From positions 1 to 19,359 of IMG/VR virus record IMGVR_UViG_2703718791_000007: a DNA stretch of 19,359 bases. One strand, given 5' to 3'. The notes under the pieces were generated by a model. That model searched no databases, had not been told where the DNA came from, and saw only the letters and a list, made by a program, of their open reading frames with translations. Positions 9,400 through 10,905 of this stretch are shown in pieces (position 1 is the first letter of the stretch; each line of letters opens with the position of its first letter). The position numbers and the translations under genes are program-made. The stretch is from a virus (Duplodnaviria > Heunggongvirae > Uroviricota > Caudoviricetes).

Positions 9400-10905
9400 T
9401 CATGGCATAGCCATGAGCATTTTCACGTCCGCATCACCGTCTGCTGACGTCTGTGGCACGCCACCCTGTACCGCTGCCGGTGAATGGTTCGCCATGATGC
9501 GTTCAAACAGGGCGGTTGTGGATGCAGAGACCGGTTCTGCCTTACCTGATCCCGCAGCCAGCACAGCCCGGGCGCTCTCCACAGTCATTCCCGGGCAGGC
9601 AGCCAGCTGTTCAGCCTGCGCCTCAGCCCCTTTTGCCTCATCCAGTGCCATGATCTGATCACGGAGTGAGGGTCCGGCATCCGCCTGCGGTGAAGCAGCC
9701 AGGATCGGGCGGGCTTTTTCCACCGTCATCTCCGGCATCGCCGCCAGCGTTGCCGCCAGTTGTTCACGACCGTTCGCTTCTTCACACGCCATAATGCGAT
9801 CGGCTTCACTCTGCGTGGATGCCACCGGCTGCTGCGGTGCCGCCGCGGCCAGAATCGCCCGGGCCTGTTCAACGCTCATGCCCTGTTGTCCTGCCAGCAT
9901 CGTGGCAAGCTGTTCACGTCCTTTCGCTTCCTGGCATGTCAGGATCCCCATCACTCGCTGGTTCTCCTGCGCGGCGGCTTCCGTTGCAGTTAATTGCGGC
10001 ATAGTGCCTCCTCTGACATTACTGTTCAGCGCCGTGGCCATCACACTGATGGCATCCGACGCATTGACTAATTCATCCGCCAGCCCGGCATCAATGCCGG
10101 ACTGACCTTCAAAAACGGCGGCCTCTGTTCCCGTGACGGCATCAACAGACAGACCGGTAAACATGGCCACTTTTTCGGCAAACATCCGGCGCGCCGCATC
10201 AATGCGCTGCTGCATGTCCTGGCGAACCTCTGCCGGTAAGGCTTCAAACTGATTGCCATCCACCTTGTGCGCCCCTGAGTAAATCAGCGTGATATCCACA
10301 CCGGCCTGCGCCAGATGACCGGCATAGCTGACATGGCTCATCATCACGCCAATGGAGCCGATACGGGATGTCTGGGTAACCAGCCGTCGGGAGCAGGCCG
10401 ACGCCAGCAGCATGGCTGCAGAACAGGCCGTGTCATTGCACAGTGCCCAGACCGGCTTCTGCTGACGGAGGCGGTAAATCATGTCAGCGCAGTCAAACGC
10501 GCCGGCGGCCTGCCCGCCCGGACTGTCAATGTCCAGCAGTACGCCCCGCACCTGGCTATCCGCCATTGCCTGCTGAAGACAGGCGACAATGCCGTCATAG
10601 CCTGTCATTCCGGAAAATGGCCGCATACCCCCCAGCCGGTACACCAGCGTGCCGGTCACCGGCAGTACAGCAATACCGTTCACCACCCGGTAAACACGGG
10701 CCGGTCGTTTACCTCCGGCCATGTACTCGTCCGTTTCAGCCAGCATTCCGGGAGCATCAAGCTGTACCTGCTGCTGTGGTACCGAAAGACTTGCTGCCCC
10801 CATCTCGCGCCCGAGCGCGCAAAAGAAAACCCGCGCATAGGCGGGCTCCAGAAGCAGCGGTTCATTGAATGCTGCGGCAATAATGTGTGAAAGATTACGT
10901 CTCAC
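9400..10905 (-). CDS. C: Capsid maturation protease C (S49/ClpP-like) with in-frame Nu3-type scaffold C-terminal region
   Basis: 501-aa ORF; FNEPLLLEPAYARVFF, GIAVLPVTGTL, GMTGYDGI, SIGVMM and DAGLADELVN blocks match lambda gpC as recalled. The only in-frame start after the upstream stop is GTG at 10903..10905 (AGGAGA upstream). The C-terminal third is a repeated Ala/Gln-rich scaffold-like region. Confidence 0.9.
   Translation of the reverse strand: MRRNLSHIIAAAFNEPLLLEPAYARVFFCALGREMGAASLSVPQQQVQLDAPGMLAETDEYMAGGKRPARVYRVVNGIAVLPVTGTLVYRLGGMRPFSGMTGYDGIVACLQQAMADSQVRGVLLDIDSPGGQAAGAFDCADMIYRLRQQKPVWALCNDTACSAAMLLASACSRRLVTQTSRIGSIGVMMSHVSYAGHLAQAGVDITLIYSGAHKVDGNQFEALPAEVRQDMQQRIDAARRMFAEKVAMFTGLSVDAVTGTEAAVFEGQSGIDAGLADELVNASDAISVMATALNSNVRGGTMPQLTATEAAAQENQRVMGILTCQEAKGREQLATMLAGQQGMSVEQARAILAAAAPQQPVASTQSEADRIMACEEANGREQLAATLAAMPEMTVEKARPILAASPQADAGPSLRDQIMALDEAKGAEAQAEQLAACPGMTVESARAVLAAGSGKAEPVSASTTALFERIMANHSPAAVQGGVPQTSADGDADVKMLMAMP
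9496..9957 (-). repeat. Three diverged tandem copies of a ~40-50 codon unit in the scaffold part of C/Nu3
   Basis: Protein units: ILTCQEAKGREQLATMLAGQQGMSVEQARAILAAAAPQ / IMACEEANGREQLAATLAAMPEMTVEKARPILAASPQ / IMALDEAKGAEAQAEQLAACPGMTVESARAVLAAGSGK, with a partial fourth (ALFERIMANH). Boundaries are approximate. Confidence 0.7.

Follow-up and report, generated by a model that had tools for sequence, protein, structure and literature searches.

The window analysed here, a 19,359-nucleotide stretch of the viral record IMGVR_UViG_2703718791_000007, is judged by its open reading frames to be a lambdoid head-tail operon on the minus strand, in which the genes for a portal protein (530 aa), a protease/scaffold protein (501 aa), a decoration protein (shp, 115 aa) and a major capsid protein (342 aa) follow one another in that order. 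The same portal-protease/scaffold-decoration-major capsid synteny is annotated in DEC9B and in phage 21. The large terminase gene of the E. coli prophage bearing this scaffold gene contains an amber codon.

The 501-aa protein matched PHROG 53 ("head maturation protease") from end to end (E = 1.8e-227), and its Peptidase S49 domain scored 120.7 bits against PF01343, for which the Pfam gathering cut-off is 24.9. Ser162 (in ACSAA), the putative nucleophile, aligns opposite Ser166 (in NCSAG) of lambda gpC, which we take to be the catalytic residue of that protein. By tblastn, phage 21 gp5 is 97.8% identical to the window protein over aa 1-501, with eleven amino acid differences that include A374V (unit 2) and, in the tail, ERI to EHF. 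This identity and the S49 domain bear out the assignment of the gene to the C/Nu3-type protease-scaffolds made in a first-pass annotation of the sequence, and three matches from PHROG families named head scaffolding or capsid assembly protein fell in the scaffold region. From N to C terminus, the protein consists of an S49 protease part (aa ~1-300), a linker of ~14 aa, three modules of ~40 aa each and a tail of 46 aa (Table 1).

The scaffold region can also be read as a gene of its own. A candidate internal Shine-Dalgarno sequence and in-frame start, AGAGGAGGcactATG, lies at window positions 10014..10000, with the ATG (Met302) at 10002..10000; the predicted 200-aa product would comprise a 14-aa leader, the three modules and the tail. 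An internal start of the Nu3 type had been expected at first pass, and this is the one annotated in the phage 21 records: in both M81255.1 and OL657228.1 the internal ribosome-binding site, the start of the 200-aa scaffold and the gene order are all as in the window. Met302 is conserved throughout the clade in our alignment of homologues, and the arrangement of GGAGG, 4-5 nt and ATG, which encodes Gly-Gly-x-Met, is kept in phage 21, Gifsy-1, phi80 and lambda.

Table 1. Features of the protease/scaffold gene, in window coordinates
Feature	Position	Strand	Basis
Head protease/scaffold gene (phage 21 gene 5, lambda C homologue)	9400..10905	-	501 aa, GTG start, stop included
Peptidase S49 domain, aa 146-293	10027..10470	-	PF01343, E = 7.3e-35
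Shine-Dalgarno AGAGGAGG of the internal in-frame start	10007..10014	-	Sequence; ribosome-binding site annotated in both phage 21 records
Nested scaffold gene (phage 21 gene 6, Nu3 homologue), 200 aa from Met302, in the protease frame	9400..10002	-	Equivalent CDS annotated in M81255.1 and OL657228.1
Unit 1 (Tri1), aa 317-358, RVMGILTCQEAKGREQLATMLAGQQGMSVEQARAILAAAAPQ	9832..9957	-	HMM domain 315-358; Tri1 box of M81255.1 translates to aa 324-358
Linker 1, aa 359-367, Pro/Gln/Ser/Thr-rich	9805..9831	-	Low pLDDT, residues 58-63 of the 200-aa AlphaFold2 model
Unit 2 (Tri2), aa 368-407, ADRIMACEEANGREQLAATLAAMPEMTVEKARPILAASPQ	9685..9804	-	HMM domain 368-407; "Tri box" of M81255.1
Linker 2, aa 408-414	9664..9684	-	Non-helical between helices 94-103 and 113-118 of the 200-aa AlphaFold2 model
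Unit 3 (Tri3), aa 415-455, RDQIMALDEAKGAEAQAEQLAACPGMTVESARAVLAAGSGK	9541..9663	-	HMM domain 415-455; Tri3 box of M81255.1
C-terminal tail, aa 456-501, with ALFERIMANH and terminal KMLMAMP	9403..9540	-	Aligns with lambda tail ALDRLMQGAP...DLLNTPV

Three diverged units and a conserved tail

Pairwise local alignments of aa 314-366, 367-413 and 414-465 gave scores of 87-101, compared to 25-28 ± 5 for shuffled sequences; the unit-against-unit alignments thus stood at z = 11-15, and none of 2000 composition-preserving shuffles reached the observed score. A self dot plot of the kind proposed at first pass, which we ran on the protein, yielded exactly three off-diagonals, at offsets of 50, 47 and 97 aa and with scores of 77-89, where shuffled sequences reached 50 at most; the next-best diagonal was at chance level. 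A unit HMM built from the three cores of the 501-aa protein likewise returned three domains there. The shuffles, the dot plot and the HMM all agree that the scaffold part holds three diverged tandem copies of a helical unit, as the first-pass annotation had stated, and the interval it gave, 9496..9957 on the minus strand (aa 317-470), covers the array correctly. The linkers between the modules are 7-9 aa long and rich in Pro, Ala, Gln and Ser, while the residues I/L, EAxG, RE, LA, PGMT, A and LAA are kept in all three units across lineages.

That annotation had also counted a partial fourth copy, which did not hold up. The segment that starts at aa 466 (ALFERIMANH) aligned to the units at z of about 0 and produced no diagonal in the protein self dot plot. 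Its phage 21 version reads FEHFMANH, and it matches LDRLMQGAP in the tail that follows the unit in lambda; this alignment and the lack of similarity to the units place the segment in the C-terminal tail that is conserved across the family. It could at best preserve a trace of a unit's first helix, with only 5-6 residues to judge by. Two short helices are predicted in the tail by AlphaFold2 (residues 160-172 and 190-196 of the 200-aa product).

The copies are old. The in-register unit cores share 55-61% identity in protein and 58-67% in DNA, and between units codon positions 1 and 2 are 67-80% identical, compared to 36-39% for position 3. The longest exact DNA word common to the copies is 6-9 nt. 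Tandem Repeats Finder reported no repeat in 9300..11000, the DNA copies being too diverged, and the DNA dot-plot diagonals, at 60-68% over 90 nt, barely exceeded the codon-shuffled maximum of 56%. The third positions, the short shared words and the empty Tandem Repeats Finder output all confirm the earlier view that the copies are too diverged for recent slippage. Relative to Gifsy-1, dN/dS was ~0.10 for the three cores together (~0.05 for unit 2 and ~0.24 for unit 3), 0.14 for the protease, 0.27 for linker 1, 0.47 for linker 2 and 0.38 for the tail, all of these being approximate values because dS against Gifsy-1 is saturated. To judge from these ratios, each of the three units is under purifying selection.

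Phage 21, lambda and copy number across the family

The phage 21 record M81255.1 ("Bacteriophage 21 head gene operon") carries three repeat_region features in gene 6, labelled "Tri1 box", "Tri box" and "Tri3 box" and annotated "function unknown; putative". Mapped to the window, these boxes fall at 9832..9935, 9685..9795 and 9541..9654, and their translations are the three unit cores. The triplication is therefore already known, the Tri boxes having been annotated in phage 21 in 1993. The paper behind this record is that of Smith and Feiss (Gene, 1993). It is the GenBank feature table that documents this prior knowledge.

Lambda gpC has 439 aa and a single unit (HMM 364-400) followed by a tail, compared to 501 aa and three units in the window protein, so the statement at first pass that lambda has fewer copies and a shorter protein was accurate. 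The gpC of phi80 is similar to that of lambda, with 447 aa, one unit (HMM 372-408) and a tail. In both phages the single module is preceded by a low-complexity linker of ~50 aa, compared to ~14 aa in the window protein. The S49 protease part of lambda is 61% identical to that of the window over aa 1-300, and both proteins have a nested in-frame scaffold; by tblastn, only aa 3-346 of the window protein aligned with lambda. We grouped N15 gp5/gp6 with lambda gpC/gpNu3 and phi80 gpC/gp6 as lambda-type systems.

In Salmonella, the Gifsy-1 protein STM2605 (498 aa, 63.5% identity) has three units in like order, each orthologous to its counterpart in the window. Unit 3 of Gifsy-1 retains the GRE motif, whereas unit 3 of the E. 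coli lineage reads GAE, with loss of an Arg that is conserved elsewhere, which could mean that the units are not equivalent.

The gene is present, with at least 80% covered, in 1,866 of 5,426 complete E. coli genomes, mostly at 95-100% identity, and in 21 phage records, including phage 21, ev017, 4A7, the PhiR series and Gifsy-1. All 80 near relatives retrieved from IMG/VR (38 distinct sequences) have exactly three units. Given the Tri annotation in phage 21 and the presence of the gene in about a third of E. coli genomes, the feature is an ordinary one: the repeat belongs to the usual layout of head modules of the phage 21 type, and the unusualness implied at first pass does not hold. The first-pass annotation had reasoned that an equal repeat number in lambda and its relatives would make the array the ordinary architecture of the family, and that equality exists among the 21-like relatives, which have three units, and is absent from lambda, which has one.

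For the wider family, copies were counted in an exhaustive search of representative proteins and in locus scans. A word-indexed protein search, with the 200-aa scaffold as with the unit profile, returned mostly truncated fragments and was poor for a copy census, and tblastn of a single unit against phage records was unfit for copy counting owing to filtering and thresholds. The unit profile found 411 matches at E <= 1e-3 among 1.84 billion representative proteins. Among the best 150 of these 411, a selection that favours multi-copy proteins through the summing of their scores, 52 of the 53 proteins of at least 380 aa contained a single unit, the exception (P0092, 505 aa) having three. The single unit of the full-length proteins in this set ended 39-80 aa from the C terminus, apart from outliers at 135 and 182 aa.

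A scan of one genome per species found three units in E. coli, Shigella flexneri, E. albertii, Trabulsiella guamensis and Providencia alcalifaciens; one unit in 30 other species, including Klebsiella, Kluyvera, Erwinia, Vibrio, many Alphaproteobacteria and Leptospira; and two units in stand-alone scaffold proteins of two Bradyrhizobium genomes. A four-unit form (P0027, 48 member sequences), whose units 2-4 are mutually alike, occurs in an E. coli prophage. The neighbourhood of P0027 consists of lambda-like head genes followed by baseplate genes. There are also two-unit variants, one an in-register hybrid of units 1 and 2 (P0020) and the other without unit 2 (P0021), as well as damaged forms (P0016 and P0094).

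In a neighbour-joining tree of units, which rests on ~40 columns and is indicative only, unit 1 of the multi-unit proteins clustered with the single unit of lambda and phi80, and units 2 and 3 formed orthologous pairs between E. coli and Salmonella. An alignment of 19 homologues showed the orthology of all three units directly. The extra units of P0027 and those of the Bradyrhizobium-type P0131 each clustered among themselves, which points to independent duplications in these proteins. Collectively, the modules descend from old tandem duplications of the single module that lambda/phi80 Nu3 shares with almost every other S49 protease-scaffold protein, unit 1 being the counterpart of the lambda unit; one module is the norm in the family, three modules mark an Enterobacterales clade, and the observed range is 1-4.

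Predicted structure and proposed role of the modules

In an AlphaFold2 model of the 200-aa product, made with 19 aligned homologues, three separate helical modules (pLDDT 70-78) were joined by low-confidence linkers. The pTM of this model was 0.26, which together with the low-confidence linkers suggests that the modules have no fixed arrangement relative to one another. A single unit, modelled with 36 aligned units, gave a pLDDT of 79.8 and a pTM of 0.58; its helices span residues 6-11, 20-27 and 34-43, and the EAxG motif forms a short turn. Across the models, module pLDDT was 70-87. The modules are thus predicted to be beads on a string, each folding independently into a small bundle of three helices. 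No solved structure resembling the module was found by sequence or fold comparison, so its binding partner is a guess. The C-terminal domain of the P22 scaffold gave neither a sequence nor a fold match to the module; the helix-turn-helix of P22-type scaffolds is a functional analogue only, being a small helical element near the C terminus of a scaffold that is removed after assembly, whereas the module described here occurs in several copies, with a 46-aa tail behind them and an S49 protease fused in front. It nevertheless provides a plausible picture of the way in which a module could dock on coat protein (PMC11922011).

The extra units come largely at the expense of linker. In single-unit proteins, the linker from protease to unit has a median length of 47 aa (17-139 in intact proteins) and the whole C-terminal extension a median of 133 aa (range, 72-265). 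The corresponding figures for three-unit proteins are 5-11 aa for the linker and 188-194 aa for the extension (191 aa in the window protein). As the linker is so much shorter and the extension stays within the family range, the extra units largely replace disordered linker.

Module sharing within nested protease/scaffold pairs is the usual route by which the prohead protease is co-assembled into the shell. Our preferred interpretation, to which we assign a probability of roughly 80%, is that the window encodes a phage 21-type gp5/gp6 pair with the known Tri triplication, and that its modules act as multivalent assembly-interaction elements of the scaffold. It is based on the sharing of the modules by protease and scaffold, on the Nu3-Nu3, Nu3-C and Nu3-E interactions detected in lambda by yeast two-hybrid (PMC3224144), where Nu3 is also reportedly required for portal incorporation (PMC3224144), and on the small helical element with which the P22 scaffold binds coat protein (PMC11922011). 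Under this model, the contacts of a module would be with the major capsid protein, on its inner face, with other scaffold molecules or with both. The protease, which has its modules in common with the scaffold, would co-assemble with it, enter the prohead in this way and later degrade the scaffold there. Three modules would raise the valency and provide a structured stand-in for the long disordered linker of the lambda type, leaving capsid geometry unchanged. For the suggestion made at first pass that repeat number could alter assembly stoichiometry, or for an effect on capsid geometry, we found no support: the capsid protein (342 aa) is of the same size class, the genome of phage 21 (42.9 kb) is lambda-sized, and the extension of 191 aa lies within the 72-265 aa of single-unit relatives.

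Two other accounts of the repeat can be rejected. The region is rich in Ala, Gln and Glu and is trimmed by the BLAST low-complexity filter, as might be expected if the similarity were due to chance, a low-complexity Ala-rich helix, recent slippage or an assembly artefact. This explanation is hardly credible, however, in the face of z = 11-15 against shuffles that preserve composition, dot-plot scores of 77-89 where the shuffled maximum was 50, and DNA identity of just 58-67%; moreover, the three units are orthologous in E. coli, Shigella, E. albertii, Salmonella, Trabulsiella and Providencia and occur in 80/80 IMG/VR loci. Slightly less remote, though still very improbable, is a function of the repeat in DNA or RNA, for example as repeated regulatory sites. 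Two "CII binding site" features are annotated inside phage 21 gene 5/6 (OL657228.1), and a CII-type pattern is also present at window positions 9750..9763 and 9984..9997. However, only one of these two sites lies inside a unit, the pattern TTGYN6TTGY occurs in the window at chance frequency (3 observed, 3.7 expected), there was no enrichment of promoter or terminator signals, and the conservation is at the protein level, with codon positions 1 and 2 at 67-80% and position 3 at 36-39%.

The chief alternative to interaction modules is that the extra units are mainly a structured spacer, which would set the distance from the protease, or from the N terminus of the scaffold, to a tail that is the real capsid binder. 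In its favour, the extreme C terminus is what binds coat protein in the scaffolds of P22 (PMC11922011), 80alpha and herpesviruses, tail length is fairly constant (39-78 aa), and three-unit proteins combine a linker of 5-11 aa (against a median of 47) with an extension of 188-194 aa that falls within the single-unit range. We nevertheless consider it unlikely, as a pure spacer would not need specific residues conserved in all three units across lineages, and the tail evolves faster than the units do (dN/dS of 0.38 versus 0.10). A different possibility, to which we give appreciable weight though well below even odds, is that the module mediates self-association of the scaffold or recruitment of the portal (gp4/gpB) instead of binding the capsid protein. 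The dependence between scaffold and portal in lambda is consistent with this, as far as it is conveyed by reference 34 as cited in PMC10275583, and such a role would differ from that of an interaction module as we propose it in the partner only.

More broadly, and tentatively, the module may be the docking element of all lambda-type scaffolds, that is, those linked to an S49 protease, with the copy number of 1-4 as an evolvable setting of valency against linker length. If this is true, the triple form of the phage 21 type would be a natural system for mapping the grip of lambda-like scaffolds on the capsid protein or the portal. The triplication itself is of small value as a discovery, since its annotation in phage 21 is three decades old and roughly one in three sequenced E. 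coli carries it. What our survey adds is the one-copy norm, the three-copy Enterobacterales clade, the range of 1-4 with its independent duplications, and the replacement of linker by units; the natural copy-number variants make up a defined set for studies of lambda-like procapsid assembly.

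Natural variation in unit number

The scaffold segment varies in length among the homologous E. coli proteins recovered in our searches, four of which (P0020, P0021, P0016 and P0094) are natural deletion variants. In P0020, units 1 and 2 are fused into a hybrid that is exactly in-register (…GMSVEQAR|PILAASPQ…), while P0021 lacks unit 2, P0016 has a gutted unit 2 and P0094 has a deletion that begins where the protease ends and reaches into unit 2. A further homologue, P0027, carries four units and is encoded in an E. coli prophage (locus L007), where genes for GPW_gp25 and Baseplate_J come after the lambda-like head genes (HDPD, Phage_cap_E and FI), such that a lambda-type head adjoins a contractile-tail-type baseplate.

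Two units are also present in stand-alone scaffold-like proteins of ~200 aa, namely those from Bradyrhizobium genomes (loci L101 and L106) and P0131. These units are closer to each other than to any enterobacterial unit, a likeness that points to a separate, independent duplication in a distant lineage.

In the E. coli/phage 21 lineage, unit 3 (window 9541..9663) reads EAKGAEAQAEQLA and has lost the Arg of the G-R-E motif, which is otherwise near-invariant among units and is kept in unit 3 of Salmonella, Trabulsiella and Providencia. This loss suggests that the three units may not be functionally equivalent.

Internal start and putative CII sites

A GGAGG sequence followed by ATG lies at a Gly-Gly-x-Met position at codon 309 of lambda gene C (OR974322.1), with its counterpart at window 10000..10014, and this arrangement is common to lambda, phage 21, Gifsy-1 and phi80. 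Initiation at lambda codon 309 would yield a scaffold product of 131 aa. The GenBank-annotated lambda nu3 (201 aa) starts at codon 239 of C, where the upstream sequence offers only a weak purine run at some distance. In the phi80 record it is the short scaffold form, of 137 aa, that is annotated.

Within gene 5/6, the head protease gene with its nested scaffold, the phage 21 record (OL657228.1) labels a TTGYN6TTGY pattern 'CII binding site'. Across the whole window, this pattern is not enriched and occurs at chance frequency (3 found versus 3.7 expected).

Positions of putative sites, terminase features and the four-unit locus
Feature	Location	Strand	Remark
Putative CII site	window 9750..9763	+	TTGYN6TTGY pattern match
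Putative CII site	window 9984..9997	+	TTGYN6TTGY pattern match
Large terminase gene	window about 12674..14602	-	interrupted by amber at codon 376
In-frame amber codon (TAG)	window 13475..13477	-	codon 376 of large terminase gene
P0027 locus (L007)	GCA_032727965.1 contig ABNWJB010000046.1, 1..1043 and downstream		four-unit variant

An interrupted large terminase gene

The large terminase orthologue of E. coli DEC9B is intact (642 aa) and has CAG (Gln) where the window copy has TAG; comparison of the two also revealed a further change in the window gene, V486G. DNA packaging by this prophage copy is probably impossible, even though its head genes are intact.
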